38,452 nt of DNA from a virus. Taxonomy: Duplodnaviria > Heunggongvirae > Uroviricota > Caudoviricetes. Position 1 is the first letter of the stretch. Every line of letters starts with the position of its first letter. The translations under genes were made by a program, and so were the position numbers. The notes beneath the pieces are model-generated. The model saw only the letters and a list, made by a program, of their open reading frames with translations, was not told the origin of the DNA and made no database searches. Below, one piece after another: positions 2,400 through 32,644 of the stretch. The stretch covers positions 1 to 38,452 of IMG/VR virus record IMGVR_UViG_2728369592_000010; one strand, 5' to 3'.

Positions 2400-2697
2400 G
2401 TTTAGACCTCGTTATTTTGAAAATCTGAACAACGTTACCGCGAGTTTTAATAACCGCAGCTAGCATGACAGCGTTGATAATGACCTCAGATAAATCCACA
2501 GCCATTGGCGTACGTAACCAGATTGCATAGGCGACACGAACAGGAATACTGGCCGCAGCAACAATCAGGAAATAAGCAAGCCATCCTCCCCACCTTCGGT
2601 GTTGAGAGCCGTTACGCCGGAATGTGACAACGCGAATTGCTATGCCAGTGCAAATAACTGCATTGGTGATAAGCAAAAAAAACTCATGCGTTACCAT
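2389..2697 (-). CDS. Small membrane protein of the lysis cassette (holin/antiholin candidate)
   Basis: 102 aa, about 3 predicted TM helices, overlaps both neighbours, immediately upstream of the endolysin. Confidence 0.55.
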
Positions 2698-3178
2698 CGT
2701 CTTTTCTCCCCGGAATTAACTCGCGTGGATTATCGGAACGGTGATAAAGCCATATACCAATTCGCACAGCGACAATTGACGACACAAATGCGCCAGCAGA
2801 GAAGACGATCCCTTTCTCGAAAGAGTCCTGCGTGATGGTAGGGATCAGGCCGGCTACACCGATAAGGATGGATGCTGTAGGTTTGTAAAAGAGAAGGCCG
2901 CAGAGAAAGCTAAGCATCGACAAGAGTACGCGACGACGAATGGGATACTCTACTGCAGAGGTAACAAAAATAACCGCTCCAGCCAAAGACCCCAAAGCAA
3001 CCTCAGGAGGTGCTCCTGCTATAACCGCCACCAGAGAACTCATGCTAAGCCACTGATTTAAAGACTCACTGGTTATCTGAACTGACATAAAAACCACCGT
3101 TAAATGTGCATATGCCCCACCTAATTTAAGGGGTTCATCATACACAATAAACCACATGTGGTTAAACAGGTAATTCAT
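2684..3178 (-). CDS. Multi-TM membrane protein, putative holin (alternative internal start at Met31 with GGTGG SD)
   Basis: 164 aa with about 4 hydrophobic helices; first gene after the tailspike; no SD before the first ATG but GGTGG precedes an in-frame ATG 90 nt downstream; a seroconversion/flippase-like role cannot be excluded. Confidence 0.5.
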   Translation of the reverse strand: MNYLFNHMWFIVYDEPLKLGGAYAHLTVVFMSVQITSESLNQWLSMSSLVAVIAGAPPEVALGSLAGAVIFVTSAVEYPIRRRVLLSMLSFLCGLLFYKPTASILIGVAGLIPTITQDSFEKGIVFSAGAFVSSIVAVRIGIWLYHRSDNPRELIPGRKDDGNA

Positions 3179-3291
3179 TGTGATACTAATGTTAAACTCA
3201 TTACTGCCGAAAAAGTGTCACTGATTAAAACACGGTAGAGAAATTATTAACGAGTAATTTAGGCATAATTACAATATTTAAGTTATTAATT

Positions 3292-3306
3292 CACTGATTT
3301 AATCAG
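3292..3306. promoter_or_regulatory. Perfect palindrome ACTGAT-TTA-ATCAGT upstream of the lysis cassette, with a related half-site CACTGATTAAAA at 3218-3229
   Basis: Read directly; lies in the 190-bp gap between tailspike stop and first lysis gene. Confidence 0.35.
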
Positions 3307-3326
3307 TAAAAGATAGCTATAACATA

Positions 3327-3345
3327 CCACCTCCCAAGGAGGTGG
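3327..3345 (-). terminator. GC-rich hairpin CCACCTCC-caa-GGAGGTGG downstream of the tailspike gene (weak terminator/attenuator)
   Basis: Perfect 8-bp stem; no clean T-run on the minus strand, so efficiency is uncertain. Confidence 0.35.
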
Positions 3346-3371
3346 TTTAGGAATAACAATAAAATATGTAC

Positions 3372-5387
3372 TTACGCACTTCGTAATAAATGTTTAGACA
3401 TAGCAGCAATACAGAAACAAGATAAGTCAGCGTAATTTACACCGTACATATCCGATTCTTTATCATAAGTAACCAGAGAATAGTCTGTAGGGTTAAGATT
3501 ATATTTCTCCATAATCAGCATTACTTCTTGAGCCATACATCCGAAGTGATACTTATCAGATTCTGCATCTGTCCATTTAAACTTTATCATGCTAATGGCT
3601 AATTCTAGCCCTGCACTATACTCTGCCGTAGATATCTCATACAAATCTTTACATCTACCGTCAGATGTTTGTATTACACCATTAGTTGCAAAGACAGTTT
3701 GCCATCTACGACTAGATTGACCACAAGTTCTTTGATTATCTATCTGGGGGGCAACACTACCATCTATACGCAAATAGTTATCTTCCGCTTGTGCGCCTCC
3801 CATAACACCTTCTAAAAAAGGCAATCCTTTGTGATTATTTACAATGAATTTATTGGAGGTGTCTTCTGATATTCCGGTACCAGCATCTGGACCTATAAAA
3901 ATATTACCATTTCCAGTTGGTAATTTTCTTCCTGCTCTTGCTCCTATCATAACATTCAGGTCACCTGAGGATAGGGAATTGAGAGCATCAACACCAATTG
4001 CTGTATTAAAATTACCTGTGAGAGTCCCAGTGTATGGGTTCTCTGTTGATGATACTCCTCGCAATGCTCCATTACCTATAGCTGTGTTATGATCACCTTG
4101 CTTTAACTCCCTACCAGCTGCATTACCAATAAGGGTATTTCCATTACATTTATTATACCCAAGACGTACACCTTGAGGGTCTGTGTAGATGCCAGTACGC
4201 ATTCCTGCAGAGCGTCCTATTGCAACATTAGCTTCTCCAGAATGGAGTTGCTGCAAAGCTGACATACCAACTGCAACATTGAACCTACCATCCTTACACT
4301 CGTTTAGCGCATCCCTGCCAATACCAATCATGTTATTTCCAGTGGTGGCTTTCTTCAAAGCATTAATACCTATACTGATAATCTCTGTTCCAGAAAATGG
4401 CGACTTATCTGTAAGATCATCTTCTAGAGTATCTCCTGACAAACCACCCACACCAACCACGATTGTGTTAGTGCCGCTAGTTATGTTGCGACCAGAACTT
4501 GGTCCAAGCAAAACCAATTGATTACCTTTACCAGAGTCAGTGTAATTTTTTGCGGCATCATAACCTAAAATAAGGTTGCTATGAGACTGAGCTACATTGG
4601 TAAACGGAATTCGTTCCGCTCCTGTCTCTTTAATTATTTTTCCTGGGCCATAAAATCTTCCATTAATATCTTCCGGCAATAAATACGTGCCATCAGGAAC
4701 ATAAACACCTTGTGGCGAAGCAGATGCCGCGGCAATGAAAGCATCTGTATCATTTGTGACTCCATCACCTTTAGCGCCAAAGTCAAGAACACTGACAGTA
4801 TCCCGCATCTTATCCTGAAACGTTCTATATACCGCGCCTGAACCATACTGAATAAACCAACCAAAACCACCAACAACCCCGGCGATTGCAGCATCGACAT
4901 AATTACACATTGAGCGATTATTTACAGCGTCCTGCTCAAGTGATGGATCTGCAAGGTTAGAAATTCTGTTTTGCTTTGCATCGTAATATTTTGCAAGCAA
5001 AGATGGTTTCATCAATGCACGTCTGAACCACCCAAAACATTGCTGGATCAGCATCGTCAGGTAGTCAAAAGCATCTTCATGCACTTCGGGGAAAAATTTT
5101 CCCTGATTGCGAAGGTCTGTCTCCTGCACTACATCAAGCACACGATCTATCGTAATTCGCCATCCAGCAGCAAGCGGAGACGGAAGAACAACAGAACCGC
5201 CACTATAAGTGCCCGCCCCAGTTACCGTATAACCGGTATCCAGAACCAATTCTGTTACGTTCCCGTTCAGGTCAGACACCTGAACAACCAGGTCGGATTT
5301 TTTGAAAATACGGAAGGTATACGGAAATGATGTCGTAACGCCGTTACCTGTGTATTCGTTGTGGTCAACTTCGGTTGAGACCGTCAT
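3372..5387 (-). CDS. Tailspike / tail fibre with conserved N-terminal particle-binding domain and repeat-rich receptor-binding body
   Basis: N-terminus MTVSTEVDHNEYTGNGVTTSFPYTFRIFKK matches my memory of the epsilon15/phiV10 tailspike head-binding domain; body has repeated N-x-A-I-G-x-x-A motifs; C-terminal about 100 aa may be an intramolecular chaperone; 3' half is AT-rich. Confidence 0.85.
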   Translation of the reverse strand: MTVSTEVDHNEYTGNGVTTSFPYTFRIFKKSDLVVQVSDLNGNVTELVLDTGYTVTGAGTYSGGSVVLPSPLAAGWRITIDRVLDVVQETDLRNQGKFFPEVHEDAFDYLTMLIQQCFGWFRRALMKPSLLAKYYDAKQNRISNLADPSLEQDAVNNRSMCNYVDAAIAGVVGGFGWFIQYGSGAVYRTFQDKMRDTVSVLDFGAKGDGVTNDTDAFIAAASASPQGVYVPDGTYLLPEDINGRFYGPGKIIKETGAERIPFTNVAQSHSNLILGYDAAKNYTDSGKGNQLVLLGPSSGRNITSGTNTIVVGVGGLSGDTLEDDLTDKSPFSGTEIISIGINALKKATTGNNMIGIGRDALNECKDGRFNVAVGMSALQQLHSGEANVAIGRSAGMRTGIYTDPQGVRLGYNKCNGNTLIGNAAGRELKQGDHNTAIGNGALRGVSSTENPYTGTLTGNFNTAIGVDALNSLSSGDLNVMIGARAGRKLPTGNGNIFIGPDAGTGISEDTSNKFIVNNHKGLPFLEGVMGGAQAEDNYLRIDGSVAPQIDNQRTCGQSSRRWQTVFATNGVIQTSDGRCKDLYEISTAEYSAGLELAISMIKFKWTDAESDKYHFGCMAQEVMLIMEKYNLNPTDYSLVTYDKESDMYGVNYADLSCFCIAAMSKHLLRSA

Positions 5388-20154: not shown

Positions 20155-20447
20155 TCCTGTTCACTGGCCTCTTTGGCCATCTTCAAATACTGTTCAGGGC
20201 AATGCGCCATAACGCGCTGAAACAGTTCCAGCGCCAGATTGCGTTGCCCCTCATTAAATGCCATTGCCATAGCATCCATCGGAGAGATAGCGGAAAACAC
20301 CCGGCCTTTCTCCAGCACAGACCAGACAACGCGACGCCCATGTTCACTGCTCATGACAAAGCGAATGTCATCAATTTCACGCTGTGCCATGTCACGTTGC
20401 TTACGGGCGTTTTCTTCTTTCAGTTGATCGTCTTCGTAATCTGTCAT
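20151..20447 (-). CDS. Small head-assembly protein, unknown function
   Basis: 98-aa ORF overlapping portal stop and scaffold start. Confidence 0.6.
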   Translation of the reverse strand: MTDYEDDQLKEENARKQRDMAQREIDDIRFVMSSEHGRRVVWSVLEKGRVFSAISPMDAMAMAFNEGQRNLALELFQRVMAHCPEQYLKMAKEASEQE

Positions 20448-22123
20448 TGTGATTGCCCACCCTGACCACTAACTACATTCGCCATAGCTGACAAAACACT
20501 CGGATCCGAAGTTTTAGCTTCGCTTAGCGTTTTGGCACCCTGTGCCGCCGCCATCCCCATCGCCATCATTTGTTGCTGCTGTTGCTGCTGTGCCCGTTGC
20601 TGGCGAGCCTGCTCAACCTGTTCCTGCGGAACAATGACGGTTGGAGACACTCCGGACATATCAGCGAATGCATCGATCGCCTGATCAACGTTGAGTTTGT
20701 CGAGAGCTTCTGGTTTCGCTTGCGCAAGTTGACCAATGAAGTTAACCGTGGACGCCAGACTGGACAGGCCGATAGACTTCTGCGCCTGAGCCATGACGGA
20801 AATGTATTCGACCTTCAGGGGCATACCTTCCATCGCGTCAGGCGGTGGCGGCAGCATGTTTTTACGCACCATCATCGAGAAAGCGCGGTCAATGAGAGGG
20901 TTAAGACATTCGTCGTTCAGACGCTCCAGAACCGGCCCCAACATCAGAAGCTTTTCTTCTTTCATTTCGATCACTGCTTCAACAGGCATCGAGCGGGTAT
21001 TGATGTTCTGCAACATCATGAACAGATCGACAAAGTAGGCGCTGTTAATGATTTGGCGGGTGTCCTGAATGTCTGCTACCAGATCTGCTGTACTGGGGTT
21101 AACCAGATAAGCAGGCCTGAAACCATCCTGACCAGTAATCTGATCGATATACGTGATGTCGCCAGGAAGAAGAGAGGCGCGCTGATTCTTGAGGGAAGTC
21201 GGAGCAACCATCGGCGGATTGGTGGCTTTATCAATCAACTGCGACTTGCGCTGCTGGAGAAGCTGCAATGCCTTAACAGGTCCAAGCGCCAGCATACCCG
21301 GGCATGATGATCCATAAACATCTTCGCCGTTAACTTCCCAGCGCGGAGCCATAATTGGAAACTCATCGAATCCGGACTCACGCAACAACTTGTCGTTATC
21401 GCCGCCAACCTCGTAATAAACCGATTTGAATGGCTTGTTCTTGCTATCCAGCTTCGATGTATCGCGGTCAATGTTCGGGTAAACCGAATGCATAACTTCA
21501 ATCCACTTCTCGTAGGTGCCGCTTTCCCACATGCTTTTTACGGATTCGCTGACGTTATTTAGCCCGAACTCCTGAACAAGCTGACGAACAGTCATAGAGA
21601 ACTTGCGAAAACAGGTGTCCACACTGCCACGAGGTGAGTTAGCCAGGTAGTAACTGCCTATCGGGAATGGCATTGTGCGAATGATGTCCTCGTCATCCTC
21701 CAGCACCGCCATTGCACCAGTGCTGTATGTACCGAGGCTTCCGTATAACTGCGGCAGCGACTGGTAGAGATTCGACTTATTGAACATATCGTTCATACGG
21801 TTCTGCACCGCCTCAAGCCACAACTTAACAGGTCCATAATCCATCATTTCAGGATCTGGCGTAGCCAGGCGAAACCACGGACGCGCTGGGCTTGTGATGC
21901 CTGACATCATGCCGCTGGCGAGAGTGCGCGCCGCCATAGTCCCGGTCGAATCAATAATGCGTGTATTGCGTCGATCGTTACGGTTGACCTCAGAAGTCAG
22001 AAAGCGGGAACCACGCGGGTTGATGTAATCACTCAACTCGCGCCAGTGCGGCTCGAACGACTGACGCTCGCTTTCAAGTTGTGCGAACTGTTTGTTCAAT
22101 CGCTCTTTAGTTGTTTCCGCCAT
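20444..22123 (-). CDS. Portal protein
   Basis: 559-aa ORF in portal position between terminase and scaffold/capsid genes. Confidence 0.85.
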   Translation of the reverse strand: MAETTKERLNKQFAQLESERQSFEPHWRELSDYINPRGSRFLTSEVNRNDRRNTRIIDSTGTMAARTLASGMMSGITSPARPWFRLATPDPEMMDYGPVKLWLEAVQNRMNDMFNKSNLYQSLPQLYGSLGTYSTGAMAVLEDDEDIIRTMPFPIGSYYLANSPRGSVDTCFRKFSMTVRQLVQEFGLNNVSESVKSMWESGTYEKWIEVMHSVYPNIDRDTSKLDSKNKPFKSVYYEVGGDNDKLLRESGFDEFPIMAPRWEVNGEDVYGSSCPGMLALGPVKALQLLQQRKSQLIDKATNPPMVAPTSLKNQRASLLPGDITYIDQITGQDGFRPAYLVNPSTADLVADIQDTRQIINSAYFVDLFMMLQNINTRSMPVEAVIEMKEEKLLMLGPVLERLNDECLNPLIDRAFSMMVRKNMLPPPPDAMEGMPLKVEYISVMAQAQKSIGLSSLASTVNFIGQLAQAKPEALDKLNVDQAIDAFADMSGVSPTVIVPQEQVEQARQQRAQQQQQQQMMAMGMAAAQGAKTLSEAKTSDPSVLSAMANVVSGQGGQSQ

Positions 22124-22137
22124 TTCAATGACTCCGG

Positions 22138-22344
22138 TTACTGACCAAGCAGCGTTTTACCGCTGGTATTAGCGGTTGATGTGTCGCCCTGAGAACCGGT
22201 AAGCAGCGTAGAACTACGACCAGCAGCAGCGCGACGGCGACGTGTTTCTTCGTCGCGGGCATCAACAACGGCGGCATCCTGCTCCTGTGGTGCTGCCTGA
22301 ACTTCTGGTGTTGCAGGCACTGATGGTGAGCTACCCATGCACAT
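22138..22344 (-). CDS. Possible small protein immediately upstream of portal
   Basis: 68-aa ORF with SD GGAG; low-complexity sequence, so weak. Confidence 0.3.
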   Translation of the reverse strand: MCMGSSPSVPATPEVQAAPQEQDAAVVDARDEETRRRRAAAGRSSTLLTGSQGDTSTANTSGKTLLGQ

Positions 22345-22412
22345 ATCAATGACTCCGTACGCAATTAAATTATTACCAATTTAACCACATATGATTTATT
22401 TATCGTAGACAG

Positions 22413-22450
22413 TTGACATTTAACGCACGAATTATTACCTTTCAGGTAAC
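22413..22450 (+). promoter_or_regulatory. Candidate promoter (-35 TTGACA at 22413-22418) overlapped by operator-like palindrome ATTACCTTTCAGGTAAC (22434-22450)
   Basis: Consensus -35 hexamer on the plus strand about 350 nt upstream of the tRNA; operator covers the expected -10/+1 region. Confidence 0.45.
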
Positions 22451-22771
22451 CAAAGAGTTCATTCCGGTTACTAACCTGACTGGCTTGTCGTTAAATTGAA
22501 CAGGTGGAGTGAGCTTTTATTTTGAGCAGTACGGCGTATGGCACATGCGCCGATAGCGGTCTGGATACGTTTAAGGGGCACCCTCCCTTGCTCGGGCAAA
22601 CGAACCAGGTAGCCGGAATGTGCAAGTCGAGCGGTTTTATTCCGCGCACGGGGATTCACCATCCCGGCGATTCGGTGTGACGCCTCGGAAGAGACGAGGG
22701 TACAACGATGAGAGCATTTATGGAGCCGCGACAAAGTGTGGCGCCTTAACAGGCTAAGTGCTCTCAGCGTT

Positions 22772-22848
22772 GTGGCATTAGCTCAGTTGGACAGAGCAAC
22801 CGCCTTCTAAGCGGTTGGTCGCAGGTTCGAATCCTGCATGCCACGCCA
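22772..22848 (+). tRNA. tRNA-Arg (anticodon UCU, reads AGA), phage-encoded, with encoded CCA
   Basis: Manually folded cloverleaf: acceptor GTGGCAT/ATGCCAC, D-stem GCTC/GAGC, anticodon stem ACCGC/GCGGT with loop CTTCTAA (TCT at 22806-22808), T-arm GCAGG-TTCGAAT-CCTGC, discriminator G, CCA; similar to but distinct from host argU as I recall it. Confidence 0.85.
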
Positions 22849-22893
22849 GAATCACACCTGAGGACCGTGATGCCAGAAGTTCCAGGGGCTTGG

Positions 22894-22935
22894 CGGTGAT
22901 GGTTTCCCTTGAAGGACTACCACCGCCCTTTTTAC
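22894..22935 (+). terminator. Hairpin GGCGGTG...CACCGCC followed by CTTTTT (first terminator after tRNA)
   Basis: 7-bp GC-rich stem with a long structured loop and a T-run. Confidence 0.45.
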
Positions 22936-23011
22936 AGCAGGACGCCATTGCGATGACTTCATGCTGTAAACCAGTACAGCCACGGAAGGCGGAACTCATT
23001 GCTTCCAGTTC

Positions 23012-23036
23012 GCCCGGTTCGTCCGGGCATTTTTTT
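23012..23036 (+). terminator. Rho-independent terminator GCCCGG-ttcgt-CCGGGC-TTTTTTT
   Basis: Textbook GC stem plus T7 run, ending 6 nt before the downstream ORF. Confidence 0.75.
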
Positions 23037-23041
23037 GCCTG

Positions 23042-23920
23042 ATGACCACAAATTACCTTAAAGGTATAATCATGAAAAACTTTAAGGTAATTAGTATGTT
23101 CGAATCGTTCAAAGAGCTGTTTTTATCTACTGCCAATACTGCCGTGCATCGAGCTAAAAACCCTGTGCTTGGTGCTTTTGTTATGTCCTGGTGCGCCTTC
23201 AACTGGAAATCACTTCTTTATCTATTTTTTAGCAAATCAAATATAATAGATAAAATTTCATACATCTCAGATAACAGCACATGGAAAACTGTTATGTTTT
23301 ATCCATGCTTATCTGTAATTACTATCTGCTGCCTATTACCATGGGTAAACAATATCATTAACGTATGGCAAGCAAAGCCTCTTGATAATAATGACTCAAT
23401 CGAAAATCACCGGAAGGCAAGAAAAATACAACGTGAAACACGGCTACAGAGATTGCTGGCTAAAAAAGACATTACTTACGAAAAAGTAAAAACAGGCGCT
23501 GAAAAAAACATTCAAGACATGAAAGAGGAAATAATTCTTTCAAAAGACAGAATGGGACAACTCACATCTGAATTGAAAGAGAGGGAGACAGAACTGCGCG
23601 CAGAACAAGCTCGTATTTTAGAATTATCTAAGGTTATTGATGAAACAACATCTAAACTAGAAAATCTAGAAAAAGCTCACAAAAATTTAAAAAACGAATA
23701 TGAGTCCTATAAGAAAAACATTCCTTTGGCAACAAATAATACAATTGCTAATGGGCTTGTAGGTCTAAAATCATTACAAGACCTTAATGAGTCCGTAAAG
23801 AAACTTGGCGTTACTGGAATTAACAATCCAGAAATCAATACATTATTGAATAATCCTCTAGTAAATATAAATGGTGGTTTAAATTCCACCTATCAAAGAA
23901 AATTAAAAACACAAAAGTAA
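23042..23920 (+). CDS. AT-rich moron: membrane-anchored coiled-coil protein of unknown function (candidate exclusion/abortive-infection effector); probable start at ATG 23096
   Basis: Clearly AT-rich relative to flanks (by eye about 35% vs about 50% GC); opposite strand to terminase and portal; own -10 TATAAT at 23065-23070 overlapped by near-operator TTACCTTAAAGGTAT (23053-23067); two N-terminal TM helices then about 120-aa coiled coil; uses AGA/AGG Arg codons. Confidence 0.75.
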   Translation: MTTNYLKGIIMKNFKVISMFESFKELFLSTANTAVHRAKNPVLGAFVMSWCAFNWKSLLYLFFSKSNIIDKISYISDNSTWKTVMFYPCLSVITICCLLPWVNNIINVWQAKPLDNNDSIENHRKARKIQRETRLQRLLAKKDITYEKVKTGAEKNIQDMKEEIILSKDRMGQLTSELKERETELRAEQARILELSKVIDETTSKLENLEKAHKNLKNEYESYKKNIPLATNNTIANGLVGLKSLQDLNESVKKLGVTGINNPEINTLLNNPLVNINGGLNSTYQRKLKTQK

Positions 23921-23923
23921 AAA

Positions 23924-25393
23924 TCATTCAAATGGGTCATAGTCTGTTATAGCCCTGCCCTGCTGCTGCCGTGGGTCATTAGTTTTCTTGGCTACCGGGA
24001 AAGCAAACGTCAGCAGTAGCGCATCGCCTTTACCCGGCGAACGCCCAAGCCGCTCTTTGATATCTTCCTTCGGTTCGATAACGATTTTACCGTCCACACG
24101 AACTTTGTACTCTGCCGCCGACAGGTCATCCGCTGTTTCCTGGTCATCCAGCATCCCGCCGAGCCTCAGCCATGTCTTGCATGAGTTGAACATCTCCCCG
24201 CGCTTATTGAGCATCTGCGGGTCAGTAGACGCGCCGCCGAACGGAACAAGTTGCCATGTACGACCCCAGCCGTCACCGATTGACTTCAGACCGGTACCGT
24301 AACCGAAGTCGATGAACACCGCGTCAGCCTGATACTGGTCTTCAAAGTCAGCGATACGCTTTGCCATAATCAGATCGTCAGTGGTCTTGTTGCCGGTCCA
24401 CAGCACCTTACTGTGCAGCCCCTGCCGCAGGTATATCACCGCGTCATCAACGCCTGAGTATGCCGGGTCAACGCCGATTATCACCGGAGCATGTGCAACC
24501 TGCGCAGCGGTGACCACCCGTTTCATTGCCTCGTCAGTAAGTCCGGTAGGGATAAACTGCAATTCAGATGCATCCGGGAATATGCCGCGCACACGGATTT
24601 TAACGAAGTCGCTGTCTTCCCCGTAGTCATCAACCCATTTCTGCAACTGCTGTTTGTTAGTGCCTTCCACCGTCCGGCTGTCAATCTGCGCAGTTTTCCA
24701 GCGGTGTTTATATTTGCGGAAACATTCGCGGAAACGCCCGGTGTTACGTGTAGGGTTTCCGAACGCCACCCAGATAATCTCAGTGTCTTCGTCCGTTAGC
24801 GCCCCCTCAGCAACTTCCCACACCAGATCCGCAATGTTCGACGCTTCATCGAATACCACGATGATGCGTTTGCGCTCGTTGTGTAGTCCGGCGAATGCCT
24901 CAGTGTTGTGCTCAGACCAGGGGATTGCGTCAGCTCGCCACCGCTTGTCGTGCCCAGGATCATTGCTGTACATCGCGGTAGCGGTACAGGTAAACCAGTC
25001 TTTCGTGATAGCAAGGTTCGACCACTTGATAATTTCCGGCCAGGTCTTCGTTCGTAGCTGGTTGTCGGTGTTGGCGGTCACCACGACCTTACAATCCTCG
25101 CAAGTGGACATGCCCCAGTTGATCAGCATTGAGATGAATGCGGATTTACCAATACCGTGACCAGAAGCGCGTGCCAGCATAAGCGGCTGATAGCGCGTCT
25201 CTGGATTCTGCAGGTGATCACGTATCTCTCGGAACGCATCAGCCTGCCACTGACGTGGGCCGGTAGCATGTGCCAGTTCAGTCCCCTCTTCCCCCCACGG
25301 GAACGCATAGAGGGCATAGCCAAGCGGATCGTGAGTGAACCCTGCAATATCCTCGATCAACTGCTCTTCAGGAGATAACGCTGTATCTGTCAC
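23924..25393 (-). CDS. Terminase large subunit
   Basis: 489 aa; N-terminal ATPase features and C-terminal nuclease region; ATGA overlap with small-subunit stop. Confidence 0.9.
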   Translation of the reverse strand: MTDTALSPEEQLIEDIAGFTHDPLGYALYAFPWGEEGTELAHATGPRQWQADAFREIRDHLQNPETRYQPLMLARASGHGIGKSAFISMLINWGMSTCEDCKVVVTANTDNQLRTKTWPEIIKWSNLAITKDWFTCTATAMYSNDPGHDKRWRADAIPWSEHNTEAFAGLHNERKRIIVVFDEASNIADLVWEVAEGALTDEDTEIIWVAFGNPTRNTGRFRECFRKYKHRWKTAQIDSRTVEGTNKQQLQKWVDDYGEDSDFVKIRVRGIFPDASELQFIPTGLTDEAMKRVVTAAQVAHAPVIIGVDPAYSGVDDAVIYLRQGLHSKVLWTGNKTTDDLIMAKRIADFEDQYQADAVFIDFGYGTGLKSIGDGWGRTWQLVPFGGASTDPQMLNKRGEMFNSCKTWLRLGGMLDDQETADDLSAAEYKVRVDGKIVIEPKEDIKERLGRSPGKGDALLLTFAFPVAKKTNDPRQQQGRAITDYDPFE

Positions 25394-25986
25394 TGATTAC
25401 CATCCTGACGTTCTTTGAGTCGCTTCCTGGCTGCTGCTATGCGATCAGCAATTGTCACATTCACATTAACATCCAGACGTTCTTTGAACGCGTTGACATC
25501 AACATGCTTACCAATCAGCTCAAGGTTCTTCACCTTGTCAGGCCATTTAATTTTTTTGAGGATTGTCTCTATCGAATCCTCGTTCATGTTCATGATGGTC
25601 GATGACAGATCAAAGCCACTAAGCGTAGTGCGCCAGATTTTCGGCCACTCACGGATTGGTTTAAGGCTCCCATCGTCGTTGAGGATGTCGATCACGTCCA
25701 TCTGGTCGATCTCCACCAGGCGCATGAGAACGTAATCAGCACTGACGCGCATTCGTTTGTTGCGCTCCTCCATCAACTCGGCAATCCGTTTTTGAATGCG
25801 TTCATCGCGCATCATGACACTGGCTTTAACTGCCGCTGTATTTGGGGAGAATCCTGCGTTAATCGCTGCCTGAGTCTGGTTTTCAGGCGTTTTGATGTAT
25901 GACTGGCAATAAGCCTCCTGCATTGCTGTTAGTGGCTTAAATTGCGTTGATTTGCGTTTATAGGTTTTAGGTTCAGCAGGCATCAT
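25390..25986 (-). CDS. Terminase small subunit (start set at MMPAEP; ORF-track start at 26064 adds a low-complexity extension without SD)
   Basis: Motif AAINAGFSPNTAAVKASVMMRDERIQKRIAE is typical of small terminase DNA-binding domains; GGTGG before the internal ATGs. Confidence 0.75.
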   Translation of the reverse strand: MMPAEPKTYKRKSTQFKPLTAMQEAYCQSYIKTPENQTQAAINAGFSPNTAAVKASVMMRDERIQKRIAELMEERNKRMRVSADYVLMRLVEIDQMDVIDILNDDGSLKPIREWPKIWRTTLSGFDLSSTIMNMNEDSIETILKKIKWPDKVKNLELIGKHVDVNAFKERLDVNVNVTIADRIAAARKRLKERQDGNQ

Positions 25987-25993
25987 AACCACC

Positions 25994-26025
25994 GTGGTAA
26001 TAGTTACCGTTGTGGTAATAGTACC
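25994..26025. repeat. Two direct copies of an everted GGTAA/TTACC element (GTGGTAATAGTTACC and GTGGTAATAGTACC) upstream of the terminase small subunit
   Basis: Read directly; half-sites are the same as the operator family but in everted arrangement with 3-bp spacer. Confidence 0.4.
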
Positions 26026-26096
26026 ATGCAAAATAAAGCCGCCATAGTTGGCGGCAGTATTCAAAACCCATCAAATTCATCATGCATAATCTACTC

Positions 26097-26108
26097 GTGA
26101 CATGTCAC
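26097..26108. repeat. 12-bp perfect palindrome GTGACATGTCAC (second copy at 5866-5877)
   Basis: Identical 12-mers at two loci, each overlapping the TGA stop of a small minus-strand gene at the same palindrome positions. Confidence 0.5.
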
Positions 26109-26443
26109 ACTATTAATTTCGTTTCATGCCAGCCTTTAGTCACCCAGCATTGCGAGTCACCATTACACGGGCATGAATTAACTGGAACTCTCTCGCCGCA
26201 CTTACCGCAACATTTTCTGCTGATCGATTTTATACGCCCGCGCACGCGTGCATCATCCTGGCGGATCAGTAACGCTATATACTCACCAAATTCGTAAGGC
26301 GCACGCCCGGGGCGACGCGTGGCACAGTTACGCTCCAGCATTTCAATTTCCTGAGCATCAAGCACAATTTCCAGCTTACGCACACCAGATGCAGCTTGTC
26401 TGGCTCTCTGAGCGGCTTTGCGCTCTGCTGCTGATTTAGCCAT
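26105..26443 (-). CDS. Small Cys-rich protein (putative zinc-ribbon regulator), last gene before the packaging operon
   Basis: 112 aa; basic N-terminal helix then C-terminal CCGKCG...CPCNGDSQC cysteine cluster. Confidence 0.6.
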   Translation of the reverse strand: MAKSAAERKAAQRARQAASGVRKLEIVLDAQEIEMLERNCATRRPGRAPYEFGEYIALLIRQDDARVRGRIKSISRKCCGKCGERVPVNSCPCNGDSQCWVTKGWHETKLIV

Positions 26444-26789
26444 TCTGATTTTCCTGCATCATGAGAAATACAATCATGGCGGCTCGGAGTGGATTATTCG
26501 CATGAAAGCAAATGTTCTCGGCATTAAAAACAGCTGACCACTCACCGCGAGATTGGTGGCAGGTTAGACTGATTTTATTATCAACAATAATAGGCCATGC
26601 ATCCGATGGATTATTGCAGTAGTCAGGTAAAGGGTTTAATGGCTCAAAAGTTGTATCAGTATTTCCGTAATACCATTTGTTGGTGTTATTCCCTGATGTT
26701 TCCGGTTTACACGCCCAAAGGCCTTTAAAAATTATGTCTCCTACCATTCTGTTAATTTCAAAATCACTTAACTGTGAATAGTCCATCAT
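26436..26789 (-). CDS. DUF2591/NinX-like phage protein
   Basis: C-terminal PLRAAMIVFLMMQE and CNNPSDAWPII motifs match my recollection of the DUF2591 family in lambdoid nin regions. Confidence 0.6.
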   Translation of the reverse strand: MMDYSQLSDFEINRMVGDIIFKGLWACKPETSGNNTNKWYYGNTDTTFEPLNPLPDYCNNPSDAWPIIVDNKISLTCHQSRGEWSAVFNAENICFHANNPLRAAMIVFLMMQENQNG

Positions 26790-27916
26790 TTTGCCTCCTG
26801 CGGCGGTTCTGGTAGCGGCATCCAGTGAGTTACATGTGCCCCGTAATGATTCCAGAACGACGCAACTGGCTCACTGTCTCCATCAGGGACAACCCAGTAA
26901 TCGTGATGAACTTTATTATTAAGCCCATCAAACACCAGATACTCTTTACAACTTCCGGGAATGTTCTCAGGCATTCGCTCACTACAGCTTATCCAACCAT
27001 CCGGAGTTACCGGATAGTTGCCAGCCAGTCTACGCAAAACAGTCTTAACCGCCTCAATACGGTCATCATCGCAACTTTCCAGCGTATCTATGCGATCGAG
27101 CATGATGATGGCGTTATCAATATCAGGATTGCCGGTCCACTCATTACCGCGATTGGATTCGGCAGCCTGGTTGCCGCGTACTGGTTGATTCTCGGCTTTA
27201 CCCTGTCTGTCGTCGCTGCATGAATGCCCTTCCAGCCAGACCAGTGCTTGTCGCATGAAATACGCAATATGCTTGCCGTGGTAATCGTCTTCATCGATGT
27301 GAAAAGCGATACTGCGGATATATTCAATTGCGTTTTCAATGGCCTCCGGCGTTATCGGAGTTGGTCCATCGAATTCGGGCATGTCAGGACCTTTTCTGAT
27401 AGCTTTAGCCAGCTCCAGCGGGTCATCGTAAAGCCAGTCGCCAGTTTGTGGGTGATTTGCTTCTGCAAGCTGCGCAGCCCATTCAAGACCATCTTTTTGA
27501 CCTTGGAGATAATCAAGCGGCAACTCTTCATGATTACTTGCAGGTTCGGCACTATGAAGCATGGCGGCGCGGCATGCGTTCCAGCCTCTCACCTCTGCAA
27601 TAGCGGCAACAGCATCAACCGCGTACATGCTAAGAGGATTAGGCATTGGTTTTTCTTCCGGTACTACTGGCACTGGAGGGGTGGCGTAGAGTGGAACTCC
27701 TCCCCCTCCACCAGAAAATTCATTGCGAGCGTTATACTCACGACCATCTGCGTCATCACGCATCCACGCCACCGGTTCTGCTTCCAGCGATGCCAGTGCA
27801 ATTCGTGCCAGTTCCCTAAGATTTTCGCTATATGGTGAAGTATTATCACGATTGATTATGTGATTAGCTGTATCTATGAGAACTTGCTTTTGTTCTTCTC
27901 TGGTCATAGTGGTCAT
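26786..27916 (-). CDS. DUF551 domain-containing phage protein
   Basis: C-terminal WMPLPEPP signature of DUF551; acidic N-terminal region. Confidence 0.7.
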   Translation of the reverse strand: MTTMTREEQKQVLIDTANHIINRDNTSPYSENLRELARIALASLEAEPVAWMRDDADGREYNARNEFSGGGGGVPLYATPPVPVVPEEKPMPNPLSMYAVDAVAAIAEVRGWNACRAAMLHSAEPASNHEELPLDYLQGQKDGLEWAAQLAEANHPQTGDWLYDDPLELAKAIRKGPDMPEFDGPTPITPEAIENAIEYIRSIAFHIDEDDYHGKHIAYFMRQALVWLEGHSCSDDRQGKAENQPVRGNQAAESNRGNEWTGNPDIDNAIIMLDRIDTLESCDDDRIEAVKTVLRRLAGNYPVTPDGWISCSERMPENIPGSCKEYLVFDGLNNKVHHDYWVVPDGDSEPVASFWNHYGAHVTHWMPLPEPPQEAK

Positions 27917-27917
27917 A

Positions 27918-28217
27918 TCACATCACCCTGAAGCCGTTGCATTTACGTAAGAAATCGCAGATATAGCCCTTCATTTTTTCATGCCAATCTCGATCATTCC
28001 CATTGCACCAACCATCAGGTGGAGTCCAGTTTTCTATCAGAGCAACCATTTTCTTTGCTTTCGCCGGAGTAGCTGTTGCGGTATCGCAGTAATGACGAGT
28101 GTCAACCAACGCATCCATACCATCGATATCAAGTACGCAAAACCATGTGTGATTCGGCATTCCAACAGATGGTATTTGTTGCCCACGTCGACGTTTATCA
28201 ATAAGACATACAGTCAT
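27918..28217 (-). CDS. Hypothetical phage protein
   Basis: 99-aa ORF translationally coupled within the nin-like block. Confidence 0.55.
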   Translation of the reverse strand: MTVCLIDKRRRGQQIPSVGMPNHTWFCVLDIDGMDALVDTRHYCDTATATPAKAKKMVALIENWTPPDGWCNGNDRDWHEKMKGYICDFLRKCNGFRVM

Positions 28218-28759
28218 GGTTCCACCTTCTCTATTTGCTTAAGACCGTCTCTCACTGCATTAAGTACGCGTTCCAGATACTGGTATTTCGGGTTTGGTGC
28301 CGTTGGCCAGTCGGCATACCACGGATCATCACCAAAGAGATTCAGCAGTTTGTTACCGACACCGAAACAACAGCAGCTTTCTTTTACGTCATCGGCGTTT
28401 TCCGCCTCGTCCCACATTTCTCGAGCCTGTACCGCGTCGATTTCTCTCTCTCTTCGTAACTTTATGATTTCTGACTTCACGAAAAGCAGATTTGCATCGT
28501 TGTCATCGTCGACCGTGCTTCGCAGTTGAGGGTCGAAATAGCCGATTAGATACTCGTTGCTGACCCGCTTAATGAACGTCTGCACATCATCACCGCCCAT
28601 AGCAAACCAAGCCGCAGTCCACGCTTTTCCGTAGCAGGTGATGGTGATTCTTCCCTTACCAGGTTCGTAGTTTTCAATCATCACTCTAACCGGATCTAGT
28701 CGCTCTGCACCGGTTATAACGAATGACAACACATCAATCTTTTCAACCGTTACACTCAC
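28214..28759 (-). CDS. Hypothetical phage protein
   Basis: 181-aa ORF overlapping both neighbours. Confidence 0.6.
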   Translation of the reverse strand: MSVTVEKIDVLSFVITGAERLDPVRVMIENYEPGKGRITITCYGKAWTAAWFAMGGDDVQTFIKRVSNEYLIGYFDPQLRSTVDDDNDANLLFVKSEIIKLRREREIDAVQAREMWDEAENADDVKESCCCFGVGNKLLNLFGDDPWYADWPTAPNPKYQYLERVLNAVRDGLKQIEKVEP

Positions 28760-29187
28760 TGGTTGCCTCCTTTGCGAAGCTCAGCGGCGAAGGCTACTGC
28801 GTGATCATGATGTTCAAGTGTGTATGCACACTCCGCAAACATCTCCACGCCCTGCGCTCGTACTTCAGCCAGGAAAGCATCGGTGGCAGGCATATTTCCT
28901 GTTGCTTTCATGGCCTCCAAGATAACCAGAACGCCATCTCTCCCAACCTCCTCGCAGATAACCTCGGTTTTGTCGCCAACAACATCGCAGAATGCCTGAA
29001 CTGCTTTACGAGCCAGCTCATTCTCCGCCGCCAGCGCATTAGCACGCACCAGTTGCACTTCCAGTTGCGTTGCCAAATCGCTGATCAGCTTTGCCACGCT
29101 GCGCATATCAACGGCACCACATTCTGCTTTCAGTTCCGAAGCCATCTCATGCCCGGCGGAAACTAACCCTTTGATATTACTTTCCAT
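28756..29187 (-). CDS. Hypothetical phage protein
   Basis: 143-aa ORF; acidic, helical. Confidence 0.6.
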   Translation of the reverse strand: MESNIKGLVSAGHEMASELKAECGAVDMRSVAKLISDLATQLEVQLVRANALAAENELARKAVQAFCDVVGDKTEVICEEVGRDGVLVILEAMKATGNMPATDAFLAEVRAQGVEMFAECAYTLEHHDHAVAFAAELRKGGNQ

Positions 29188-29248
29188 CTTTACCCTCGCT
29201 TATCCACATAACTTATTGATTACATTGATAACTAAAAAGATCGTCGAT

Positions 29249-29593
29249 TCAGAACTCTTCGATGTTCCAGCCACCACCTGCTTTCTTTGGTTTAACCGTT
29301 ACCCCGATGATTCGGAACGGATACTGATCTGCGGCGACTTTGGTTTTCACCCTGGCGTCGTCGGTCCAGAAACCTTTCACTTCGTGCAGTTCCATCTCGC
29401 CGGTGGCGAGCATCACAGCAAAATCGGGCGTATAGAACGTGTTGTCAGCTAACCGCAGCTTGATACCCTCAAATCGATACCAGGCTATTTCCCCTGCACG
29501 TTTACGCAGCTCAAGGTGCTGGCAATACGCAGATTCTGTTTTGTTCATCTGGCCTGTTTTGAGTCGACCAAGAGCCTGTATCTGTTTTCTCAT
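29249..29593 (-). CDS. DUF1064-type putative nuclease / resolvase-like protein
   Basis: Motifs YTPDFAV and ELHEVKG resemble the DUF1064 family; first gene downstream of an operator-flanked promoter. Confidence 0.65.
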   Translation of the reverse strand: MRKQIQALGRLKTGQMNKTESAYCQHLELRKRAGEIAWYRFEGIKLRLADNTFYTPDFAVMLATGEMELHEVKGFWTDDARVKTKVAADQYPFRIIGVTVKPKKAGGGWNIEEF

Positions 29594-29596
29594 GAT

Positions 29597-29673
29597 TTAC
29601 CCCTTAGGTAATTAAAAACCACATAAGACACGAAATCAATAGATTTTAGAATATTTTATTACCTCAAAGGTAA
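29597..29673 (-). promoter_or_regulatory. Promoter-operator cassette: operator TTACCTCAAAGGTAA (29659-29673), -35 TTGATT (29634-29639, minus), 17-bp spacer, -10 TTTAAT, operator TTACCCCTTAGGTAA (29597-29611) overlapping -10/+1 and the SD
   Basis: Same geometry as the plus-strand cassette at 32702-32778. Confidence 0.6.
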
Positions 29674-29685
29674 TTATCGAGACGT

Positions 29686-29704
29686 AAAAAAATGCGCTAT
29701 CGCG
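29686..29704 (-). terminator. Weak terminator after the P-like gene (GCGC-gata-GCGC then T7)
   Basis: Short all-GC stem followed by seven T on the minus strand. Confidence 0.35.
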
Positions 29705-29710
29705 CTGGTA

Positions 29711-30511
29711 TTACTTGATAAATCCTGACGCCTTTCCCCGCCTGTATTCCTCCATCAGCCACTGCGCCGGTGTTATTCCCCCAAGGGTGGCGGCGTTAGG
29801 CATGCACCCGAAACTTCGCCCTGGTGGATGGTAAACGTCTCTCCCTGTGTCCGGAGGCGTACTCATGGGTTCTGGCTTTGCCTGTATGCTGATCACCGGA
29901 TCGGGTATCTGCTGTCCGGAAGCCACCTTTTTCGCCCAATCATCGAGCAGCCTGCGCGCGTGTTTCTCAACCTCAATCTCGCTAAGCTGGCGCTGATACA
30001 TTGCACGGCGGGTATCACATACGACCCAGTACATAACCGGATGCCGCCACGGGAATCTTTCGGGACCACCAGGATATAAACTTTTTTCCTTGCTGTACCG
30101 GTGAAACTCCGCCATCACATCGTCAATGGTGACGCCAAGAACCATCTTGCTGTCTTTGCACCACTTGATAAATTGCCCTGGCGACGGCCAGAACGGAGAT
30201 TCACTGGCGCGGGCGTGGCGCATACCAGCAGAAACCTGTTCACGGGTTCGGATCCCCCCTTCGGCAAACGCAGCAATCCACTGCTGTTTTGCAGCGACTT
30301 CCTGCTCTGGCGTCTTCAGGTTGGTTACCACTGCCGCCGGAAACAGCTGTTTCAGCTGTTTGAAAAGGGCATCAACAAGCCTCTCTGCTGACATGTTCAC
30401 CACATTGTCATTGTTGACGTACTGATGCTCATAACCTGACATGCGAGAAAGGGCTTCTCCGTCACGGTTTTGTATCGCGGTAAAAACGTTGTTCACAAGA
30501 AATCCTCCCAC
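29711..30511 (-). CDS. Replication protein P-like helicase loader
   Basis: REQVSAGMRHARASESPFWPSPGQFIKWCKD aligns with lambda P MEQVNAGMRVARRQNRPFLPSPGQFVAWCRE (from memory). Confidence 0.85.
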   Translation of the reverse strand: MGGFLVNNVFTAIQNRDGEALSRMSGYEHQYVNNDNVVNMSAERLVDALFKQLKQLFPAAVVTNLKTPEQEVAAKQQWIAAFAEGGIRTREQVSAGMRHARASESPFWPSPGQFIKWCKDSKMVLGVTIDDVMAEFHRYSKEKSLYPGGPERFPWRHPVMYWVVCDTRRAMYQRQLSEIEVEKHARRLLDDWAKKVASGQQIPDPVISIQAKPEPMSTPPDTGRDVYHPPGRSFGCMPNAATLGGITPAQWLMEEYRRGKASGFIK

Positions 30512-31674: not shown

Positions 31675-31905
31675 TCATGAGTAGAAGAAGTATGCCAGTT
31701 CTGCTTTTGAGCGCAACCATTGTCTTGATTTACAGGCTTTAAAAAGCCCATTCATCAATACTTTACCTGGCATTTTGCGCTTACCTGTTAAGTGAGTCTG
31801 GATATAGTGACTCGTCGTTCCGGCTTCCTGTGCGAAGGCTTCACGCTCATCCGGAGTAAGTGCAAGCCAGTGCTTTTTGAAATCGAAATGTCCGTTATCG
31901 CTCAT
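31675..31905 (-). CDS. Cro-like small HTH regulator, first gene of the lytic-direction operon
   Basis: 76 aa with HTH-like segment EREAFAQEAGTTSHYIQTHLTGKR; divergent from the repressor gene across an operator cluster. Confidence 0.6.
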   Translation of the reverse strand: MSDNGHFDFKKHWLALTPDEREAFAQEAGTTSHYIQTHLTGKRKMPGKVLMNGLFKACKSRQWLRSKAELAYFFYS

Positions 31906-31941
31906 AGCTATTGCCTGATATTTATTTCAGATAATAAATAT

Positions 31942-32004
31942 TCACCCATAAGGTAACAAAAATCAAGGATAGTTACCTATGGGGTGCATTTACCTGTTGG
32001 GTAA
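31942..32004. promoter_or_regulatory. Tripartite operator cluster between Cro-like and repressor genes: TCACCCATAAGGTAA (31942-31956), TTACCTATGGGGTGC (31973-31987), TTACCTGTTGGGTAA (31990-32004)
   Basis: Three TTACC-N5-GGTAA-family sites in the 154-bp divergent intergenic region. Confidence 0.6.
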
Positions 32005-32059
32005 TATTGCTTTAAATTGAATCATCTACTGATTCATATATGAGGCGATTTTCCAGAAA

Positions 32060-32644
32060 ATGAAAAGTATCCAGGACGTCCGCAGGCAAAATCTCAACGA
32101 CTTGATCGACCGTGAATTCAATGGTGTTCAGACGCGGATGGCAGAAAAACTTGGAACTCAGGCAAATCTGGTAAACCGCTGGGCTCTTGGCAAGAAGGTT
32201 ATCGGCGACCAGGTTGCGCGAAAAATTGAAGCTGCCGCCAATAAACCCCGTAACTGGCTTGATATCGATCGCTCGCTTTCTCAGGAAGGTTTTCAGCCTG
32301 TCGGCCCAAGCGACATTGGTCAGCTAGCGGCTCACAACCTGGAACGCTGGATGAGCGAAAGCCGCGACCTTTCAACACAGGGAAAACTTCACCGCGCATC
32401 CGGCGTCGCCCAGGTGACAATCAGCCGCCTGTTAAACAATGAGGTCAGCGTTTCCATTTCCACCCTGGAGAATGTTGCATCCGCATTCGGGCGTCACGGA
32501 TATGAACTACTGATTCACCCGCACGACCCTGCGACTATCAACTATGACCGCTCACGCTACGCATTGTTACCCGAAACCGAGAAAGCAAAGATCGAAAGTT
32601 ACATTGAATTTGTCATCAACCAGAACGAAAAAAGCAAACAATAA
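32060..32644 (+). CDS. Immunity repressor candidate with two tandem XRE-type HTH domains and no recognisable S24 autocleavage domain
   Basis: HTH-like segments at about residues 20-65 and 110-150; no Ala-Gly cleavage site or Ser/Lys peptidase motifs seen; divergent from the Cro-like gene. Confidence 0.7.
   Translation: MKSIQDVRRQNLNDLIDREFNGVQTRMAEKLGTQANLVNRWALGKKVIGDQVARKIEAAANKPRNWLDIDRSLSQEGFQPVGPSDIGQLAAHNLERWMSESRDLSTQGKLHRASGVAQVTISRLLNNEVSVSISTLENVASAFGRHGYELLIHPHDPATINYDRSRYALLPETEKAKIESYIEFVINQNEKSKQ

Follow-up and report, generated by a model that had tools for sequence, protein, structure and literature searches.

A conserved structured RNA, a candidate early-leader regulator, in the terminase-portal gap of a phiV10-like prophage and in many other phages

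The terminase-portal gap holds a structured RNA

The window analysed here is the whole 38,452-nt stretch of IMG/VR virus record IMGVR_UViG_2728369592_000010, which was identified as a phiV10/epsilon15-like (Uetakevirus) prophage. The gap between its terminase and portal genes consists of plus-strand material amid minus-strand genes, and holds a promoter, a variable leader, a conserved RNA (hereafter the core), a 3' stem, a tRNA-Arg gene, and two terminators (Table 1). We found that the core is a member of a structured RNA family with four helices backed by covariation, and that this family is new, widespread, and located in early-promoter-proximal positions. A 697-bp query covering 22345-23041 was 100% identical to the Escherichia coli PCN033 chromosome and 98% identical to phiV10, TL-2011b, and ZX5 by BLAST. 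It held only short overlapping open reading frames (ORFs) on both strands plus one tRNA, with no credible protein gene, which bore out the statement in a preliminary description of this DNA that roughly 700 bp carried no credible protein ORF except the tRNA, here tRNA-Arg(UCU). The consensus -35 element that it had placed upstream of the leader was also present. Its characterization of the segment as GC-rich was correct relative to the immediate flanks, the G+C content being 0.555-0.575 at 22500-22900 versus 0.38 at the promoter and 0.30-0.38 in the downstream 292-aa ORF (rounded, 0.56-0.58 versus 0.30-0.38), but not relative to the neighbouring structural genes, which had about the same content; the segment is GC-rich only in relative terms.

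The fold of the core was assessed in two alignments. In A2, a MAFFT alignment of 30 diverse cores that was not fitted to the model, 97.9% of the cells in the four helices were paired, versus 28-46% in slid controls, and compensatory changes were found in 9 of the 24 pairs. A3 comprised 77 distinct sequences and was fitted to the model, so that it leans towards structure; the picture was the same, with 98.1% of cells paired versus 27-46% in slid controls and compensatory changes in 11 of 24 pairs (201 cells), a score as high as which was reached in none of 500 shuffles. G-U pairs were frequent in helices P1, P2, and P4 (columns 4/20, 7/17, 30/90, and 139/153), and because they would be C-A on the opposite strand, the RNA was placed on the plus strand, in the same sense as the tRNA. 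Long invariant unpaired blocks, namely UAUGGCACAUG, AGCGGUC, the 19-mer, and GGCG-N4-GGUGUGAC, ran between the helices. The core measured about 175 nt in the window and ~150-180 nt across the family. Folding energy by itself was unconvincing (minimum free energy (MFE) z-score of -2.25 for the stretch), and the evidence for the hairpins is comparative.

These results supported the suggestion of the preliminary description that the segment is a structured non-coding RNA. The short hairpins that it had noticed were real by comparative pairing in both alignments, and conservation and covariation in related phages, whose lack it had named as evidence to the contrary, were both strongly present. The boundaries that it had proposed, 22450-22771, were right in that they enclosed a conserved RNA, but the core is narrower and 22450-22530 is variable, differing widely among relatives in sequence and in length (~35-250 nt). 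The extension to the tRNA was likewise right in that the 3' stem reaches the first three tRNA bases, but the non-coding unit continues to the terminator at 23012-23037.

Beyond the four helices, RNAalifold offered an alternative in which GCACAU in the loop of helix P1 pairs with AUGUGC of the 19-mer, an arrangement that involves invariant bases only and competes with the covarying hairpin P1. A further possible contact joins CUUG of the P2 and t1 loops with an invariant CAAG. Because the bases concerned are invariant, these loop contacts are beyond a covariation test.

A protein-coding gene was considered for the core and rejected, as the lengths of the core and of both variable regions spanned all classes modulo 3 and no frame was consistently open. 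The broader proposition that the locus is not an RNA, and is instead protein-coding (e.g. through the antisense ORF 22471-22734, the one annotated in mEp460_037, cdtI orf40, and phiV10) or a DNA site such as an operator array, an attachment site (att), or a single-strand origin, appeared to us hardly credible. Hypothetical proteins have been annotated over the RNA in several GenBank records, and many copies have a stop-free minus-strand frame; however, that frame differs in its position relative to the invariant block and was absent in 17 of the 77 sequences, the substitutions were pairwise compensatory, and the numerous G-U pairs are valid on the plus strand only, which argues against duplex DNA or the opposite strand. 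The hypothetical proteins, which lie on either strand and comprise phiV10 (2666-3356), mEp460_037, cdtI orf40, Tyrion gp54, and mEp390_036, are probably mis-calls.

Table 1. Features of the terminase-portal gap and related sites of the window
Feature	Position	Strand	Remarks
Conserved RNA core	22531-22706	+	model R1, 142.6 bits, E 5e-39; sole copy in window
Helix P1	22532-22540/22544-22552	+	loop GCA inside invariant UAUGGCACAUG
Helix P2	22556-22563/22606-22613	+	variable apical domain carrying UCCCUUG
Invariant 19-mer GGUAGCCGGAAUGUGCAAG	22608-22626	+	
Variable hairpin after 19-mer	~22630-22648	+	
Helix P4	22651-22654/22662-22665	+	loop UUCACCA
Conserved linker GGCG-N4-GGUGUGAC	22667-22682	+	
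Helix P5	22683-22687/22695-22699	+	loop GAAGAGA
3' stem domain	22702-22774	+	ACAACGAUGAGAGCAUU (22702-22718) pairs with AGUGCUCUCAGCGUUGU (22757-22773)
tRNA-Arg(UCU), CCA encoded	22772-22848	+	ARAGORN; Rfam tRNA 73.3 bits
Conserved hairpin after tRNA, AUCACACC...GGACCGUGAU (AUCAC...GUGAU)	22855-22876	+	same relative place in L043, L067, L093, L103
Terminator-like hairpin t1, GGCGGUGAUGG...CUACCACCGCC then CUUUUU	22892-22936	+	read from sequence; kept in Uetakevirus relatives
Intrinsic terminator t2, GCCCGG-UUCGU-CCGGGC then AUUUUUUU	23012-23037	+	terminator scan; preceded by conserved CAUUGCUUCCAGUUC
Promoter with operator	22413-22449	+	
-35 TTGACA	22413-22418	+	
-10 TACCTT	22436-22441	+	17-nt spacer after -35
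Palindrome TTACCTTTCAGGTAA	22435-22449		overlaps -10 and start site
Variable 5' leader	22450-22530	+	outside conserved RNA
Operator-like palindrome sites	5492, 22435, 23053, 29597, 29659, 31942, 31990, 32702, 32764		plus weaker ones
Portal	20444-22123	-	
68-aa gene	22138-22344	-	
292-aa ORF	23042-23920	+	phrog_4780, function unknown
Terminase L	23924-25393	-	

Distribution and settings of the family

The 697-bp unit was present in 502 of 5,426 complete E. coli genomes. When a 256-nt query of the core was used, matches were obtained in 83 phage records and 591 plasmids, the latter mostly P1-like. Positions 22531-22778 matched unannotated DNA of lambdoid mEp460, cdtI, 2H10, Ayreon, and Stx2c, Stx2a, and Stx2k phages at 82-84% identity, and 22531-22693 matched P1, P7, D6, SJ46, and hundreds of P1-like plasmids at 77-81%; remoter copies were found in Salmonella, Klebsiella, and Enterobacter phages. 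A search with the 19-mer GGTAGCCGGAATGTGCAAG brought up more than 120 viral contigs, as well as 24 contigs of species-representative genomes, 22 of the latter from Enterobacterales and two from metagenome-assembled genomes (MAGs) labelled Bacillota or Oscillospiraceae. Model R1 confirmed 23 of these 24 contigs, including one MAG, and a search with another block turned up only single-base variants of the 19-mer. Altogether R1 gave 101 matches of 105-161 bits in the 100 sources searched. Every BLAST search placed the core at a single position in each phage record; contig L026 carried two copies on its minus strand, at 3993-4153 and 4800-4958 (113 and 150 bits), ~800 nt apart.

At gathering thresholds, the tRNA was the only Rfam 15 match in the whole window. 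Relaxing the threshold to E<=10 over 22100-23200 gave nothing on the plus strand of 22531-22771, and the mEp460 leader had no Rfam match, so that the scan proposed in the preliminary description found no family that fits the core. The prophage small RNA (sRNA) STnc100 (RF02076, threshold 47 bits) had no match in the window or in mEp460. No paper describing the RNA was found, and a literal-sequence search of papers was also empty. A 2023 catalogue of ~10,000 unnamed phage RNA candidates (PMC10690425) could include this RNA.

The surroundings of the core differed among phage groups. In Uetakeviruses it lay in the terminase-portal gap, and in lambdoids without N it lay just downstream of PL, directly after the repressor gene and on the same strand; at least 52 of 130 loci had a same-strand S24 repressor ORF upstream, with 120-160 nt between its end and the core. 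In mEp460, the cI stop (2845) was followed by a terminator (2869-2889), two TTGC-N7-GCAA operators resembling those between cI and cro, the promoter TTGCAT-17-TATCTT (2927-2955), and the core from 3001, i.e. ~40 nt downstream of the OL operators and PL at 2902-2955. A second terminator (3386-3432) lay between the RNA and the first early-left gene, a yfdP-like gene at 3569, and no sigma-70-like promoter was noticed on reading the stretch between the RNA and this gene. No N-like gene was present among the first PL genes of mEp460, which were phrog_204, DUF2303, and a YfbR-like nucleotidase. In Stx2a_1447, the 780 nt after cI were free of genes. E. coli K-12 CPS-53, which carries yfdP/Q/R, had no copy of the core.

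In P1-like phages the core began 14 nt after tRNA-Ile(cat), ended ~100 nt before ban, and stood alone, without the 3' stem. Phage P1 itself (L004) has a 14-codon ORF (MPIISDIQHAWVEC; 2729-2776) between the core and ban, the stop codon of which overlaps the ban start (UAAUG), an arrangement that suggests translational coupling. In the lytic Klebsiella phage SopranoGao, the core followed the lysis genes.

We examined the tRNA neighbours of 156 copies. In 26 of them (17%) tRNA-Arg(tct) lay just downstream, in 19, all P1-like, a tRNA lay just upstream, and 111 had neither, two of these having tRNA-Ile ~530 nt downstream. The RNA might in principle be a mere 5' leader of the phage tRNA-Arg, acting as a signal for its processing or expression, in keeping with the precise junction and with the tRNA-Arg(UCU) directly downstream in the window and at the 26 loci. 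We consider this very unlikely, given that 111 of 156 copies had no adjacent tRNA, that the tRNA of P1-like phages is upstream, that another structured domain takes the place of the tRNA in tRNA-less relatives, and that the conservation of the core is far above what any tRNA leader would need. The processed tRNA leader put forward in the preliminary description therefore did not hold as a general role.

Promoter control and separable 3' modules

The promoter TTGACA-17-TACCTT was kept in diverged Uetakevirus relatives despite differing spacer sequences. The palindrome overlapping it, TTACCT-N3-AGGTAA, had 15 sites in the window at no more than two mismatches, versus ~1 expected. These sites clustered on both sides of a helix-turn-helix (HTH) repressor ORF (32060-32644), lying between this ORF and a divergent cro-like gene as well as at the promoter after the repressor ORF, and several promoters of the window were overlapped by them, including that of the 292-aa ORF by the site at 23053. 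The palindrome is probably the operator of the prophage repressor and would mark the early promoters of this phage. Because the promoter of the RNA overlaps this palindrome, expression is expected early in the lytic cycle and not in lysogeny; in the window, both the RNA and the tRNA are most likely kept silent by the repressor in the lysogen and produced early once the phage has been induced or has infected a cell. Looking for the transcript in a lysogen, as the preliminary description had suggested, would probably fail. Such a repressed promoter would follow the same logic as PL of the lambdoids. In phage P1, the C1 operator consensus was absent from the 2.5 kb upstream of the core; the sole basis for repressor control of that copy is the C1 control of ban.

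Downstream of the core, the 3' stem encloses an insert of ~38 nt in the window and ~30-400 nt in relatives. Among 19 distinct relatives, 92.8% of its cells were paired versus 31-61% in slid controls, and 5 of 16 pairs showed compensatory change; the stem was also predicted independently by the MFE fold, and the first three tRNA bases take part in its final pairs. In the tRNA-less relatives L043 and L067, the place of the tRNA-Arg is filled by a domain with GUUGUGGU...ACCACAAC as its closing helix (~+165 to +260, counted from the 19-mer), which has the GUGG start in common with the tRNA. In the window, the tRNA acceptor stem has taken over the closing helix of the replaced domain. This domain gave a weak Rfam match to Methylophilales-1 (29.7 bits versus a gathering threshold of 79.9), which is probably due to chance. 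The loop of t1 carries UUUCCCUUGA, the motif of the helix P2 apical loop. UCCCUUG(AUGCU) occurred both at 22575-22585 and at 22905-22915 and is complementary to the invariant GCAAG; in viral contig L166, a deletion has its two ends precisely at the two copies.

When diverged Uetakevirus relatives were compared, the unit proved to be conserved from the promoter to the last terminator, in the order promoter, variable leader, core, 3' stem, closed domain, AUCAC...GUGAU hairpin, t1, hairpin, and t2, with t2 and its flank recurring. In relatives L093 and L043, the downstream ORFs started 12 nt past the U-run of t2 (GGGCAUUUUUUUAAGGUGAGAUUAUG) and had no promoter of their own; their transcription could therefore come only from the promoter of the RNA, by way of t1 and t2. 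The slot after t2 held different small ORFs in the two (+440 to +740 in L093 and +468 to +730 in L043, counted from the 19-mer), which shared the ribosome-binding site AAGGUGAG, as in an exchangeable cargo position. The 292-aa ORF of the window has its own promoter-like site ATGACC-17-TATAAT overlapped by the operator-like palindrome; its true start codon is probably at 23073 or 23096, and it looks like an early accessory gene of separate acquisition.

The N-less lambdoids LLS (L172) and ST64B (L173) have the same yfdP/Q/R operon, headed by non-coding PL leaders of 629 nt (31730-32359, minus strand) and 816 nt (27237-28053, minus strand), respectively. These leaders shared the downstream modules, namely the ACAAC...GUUGUGG stem, CCACAAC, and GCUGUGUGUAGUCUU with a terminator and UUUUUACAC. 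Because phage P1 has the core alone, LLS and ST64B the 3' modules alone, and the window and mEp460 both, the core and the 3' modules are separable. ST64B has a different 5' domain, which includes CCUGUAGCCAGUGCAAGC, a string that recalls the invariant 19-mer. A sub-threshold STnc100 match (35.1 bits versus a gathering threshold of 47, E 8e-6) was found at 27464-27582 of ST64B, within the module equivalent to the stretch whose place the tRNA takes in the window. An RprA match in LLS is probably due to chance.

Possible functions of the early-leader RNA

The RNA probably either assists early transcription or is itself a functional early product. Our favoured reading, which we hold tentatively, is that the RNA is an immediate-early leader that promotes terminator read-through, like HK022 put or lambda N/nut in function and not homologous to them. 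Transcription would start at the repressor-controlled early promoter after induction or infection, and the RNA would then act in cis, either by affecting the RNA polymerase that is transcribing it or by influencing how the following terminators fold. The polymerase would thereby pass the intrinsic terminators (t1 and t2 in the window, tL in lambdoids) and long untranslated stretches to reach the downstream genes, which would make the RNA a functional analogue of put or N/nut in phages without N. In the window, RNase P processing of the tRNA 5' end (22771/22772) would release an RNA ending at the base of the 3' stem.

The closest parallel is HK022 put, which like the core is an RNA-only element just downstream of PL in N-less lambdoids, at the head of the early operon and followed by terminators. 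The two differ in that put has ~70 nt and two stem-loops while the core has ~175 nt and four helices, and in that the core was found outside lambdoids too. put binds the zinc-binding domain of the RNA polymerase beta' subunit and suppresses termination in cis, an activity that is hypothetical for the core. Homology to put was rejected, because R1 run with filters off gave no match in HK022 22000-30000, which includes PL-putL, and the putL sequence was unrelated. As for lambda N/nut, the core takes the nutL/N position in lambdoids, but no N-like gene was found near it. The ribosomal (rrn) boxA was also compared. Most relatives have UGCUCUUU, identical to the opening of rrn boxA, as the 3' strand of the 3' stem, with a hairpin next. 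This string, however, forms one side of a covarying helix and varies together with the opposite side, the window having UGCUCUCA (22757-22768), and the resemblance may be chance. Structured leader RNAs that allow read-through of several terminators are otherwise known from operons and mobile elements, namely EAR, the RNA antiterminator of Bacillus eps operons, and conAn2 and the Tn916 element, both from conjugative elements, which differ from the core in their Gram-positive hosts and their sizes, and to none of which the window gave an Rfam match.

A bolder version of this reading can be formulated, which we regard as possible but unlikely. The core would represent a new RNA class, an RNA-only processive antiterminator that reprograms E. 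coli RNA polymerase by itself. It would have no relationship to put, be over twice as large, replace N in many lambdoids (including Stx2a, Stx2c, and Stx2k phages), and be used by phage P1 before ban and by phiV10-like phages before early accessory genes.

Several observations weigh against read-through, which we deduced from gene order only. There is one copy of the core per genome and none after PR, unlike put, the tandem pair of L026 being the exception. LLS and ST64B were, contrary to expectation, without the core; the core is thus not required for the N-less terminated-leader architecture, or other 5' domains substitute for it. In phage P1 no obvious terminator lay between the core and ban. 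A simple scan, which misses long-loop terminators, found terminators downstream of the core in 48 of 100 cases versus 47 of 100 in the upstream control, giving no statistical link. The 292-aa ORF of the window has an operator-bearing promoter of its own, and in L103 the convergent terminase gene comes right after the unit, leaving nothing to read through to. As to which strand the downstream ORF lies on, spurious antisense ORFs blurred the comparison. Moreover, the presence of a tRNA exactly at either end suggests discrete release, which fits a trans-acting product equally well.

Such a product would be a stand-alone, trans-acting immediate-early RNA, released from the early transcript either by RNase P acting on the downstream tRNA (as in the window) or by tRNA 3' processing at the upstream tRNA (as in phage P1), with the terminators simply ending the gene. 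It would act as a free RNA or ribonucleoprotein, e.g. with a host factor, a tRNA, or a defence protein as the target that it binds or titrates. We consider this main alternative doubtful, though several observations favour it: its own promoter and terminators make the unit a closed one, no gene follows it in L103, and tRNAs abut it exactly, the tRNA-Arg beginning within the last pairs of the 3' stem and the tRNA-Ile of phage P1 ending 14 nt before the core. The core also moves as a module among unrelated phages with long invariant unpaired blocks as in binding surfaces, is kept alone by phage P1, and is present in two copies at one locus in L026. However, in the annotated examples the core always heads co-oriented early genes, downstream ORFs in relatives depend on passage through the terminators of the unit, and nothing found here points to a partner or target.

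Other known phage RNAs offered partial parallels. C4 of P1 and P7 and CI of P4 are RNase P-processed antisense immunity RNAs of ~80 nt that are made in lysogens. If cut as proposed, the window RNA would share with them the release of a regulatory phage RNA by tRNA-type processing; it differs in lying behind a repressed promoter, and the C4 family, which is in Rfam, gave no match. The promoter-proximal, terminated leader sRNAs STnc100/PasD and StxS of lambdoid prophages (STnc100 and PasD being prophage sRNAs near Q) resemble the unit in that it ends in terminators with conserved flanks, but the likeness to STnc100/PasD concerns the 3' modules and not the core. GOLLD and ROOL are large, modular, ornate phage non-coding RNAs with variable inserts that sometimes adjoin tRNAs; the core is much smaller, occurs in Enterobacterales and not in Lactobacillales, rumen, or lake sources, and had no Rfam match to them.

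The core could also be imagined as the aptamer of a riboswitch-like sensor of a metabolite, an ion, a tRNA, or a protein, in which alternatives among ACAAC (22702), GUUGUGG (22769), and, in relatives, a downstream CCACAAC would choose between termination and read-through. The layout, in which a strongly conserved core stands ahead of variable sequence resembling a platform and of terminators, the three mutually complementary segments of tRNA-less relatives, and the complementarity of UCCCUUG in the P2 and t1 loops to the invariant GCAAG are all in line with such a switch. We nevertheless judge it improbable: the core and the terminators are separated by 100-400 nt that take in an entire tRNA or sizeable inserts, the core of phage P1 is without any platform, the candidate tertiary pairings all fall on invariant bases beyond the reach of covariation, and no gene association indicates a ligand.

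Together, our results revealed a clearly folded, deeply conserved RNA that is annotated nowhere and is present in Shiga-toxin phages, in one tenth of the complete E. coli genomes, and in P1, a phage that has long served as a model. How N-less lambdoids other than HK022 pass their early terminators was raised as an open question in 2025 (PMC12315714), and the RNA, a defined element, sits exactly where the answer would be expected. If it is instead a free early RNA, it would represent a new kind of immediate-early phage effector. Either way, the family merits an Rfam entry and the antisense ORF annotations over it need correction, and as an early-leader regulatory RNA of phages it has a real chance of embodying a new mechanism.

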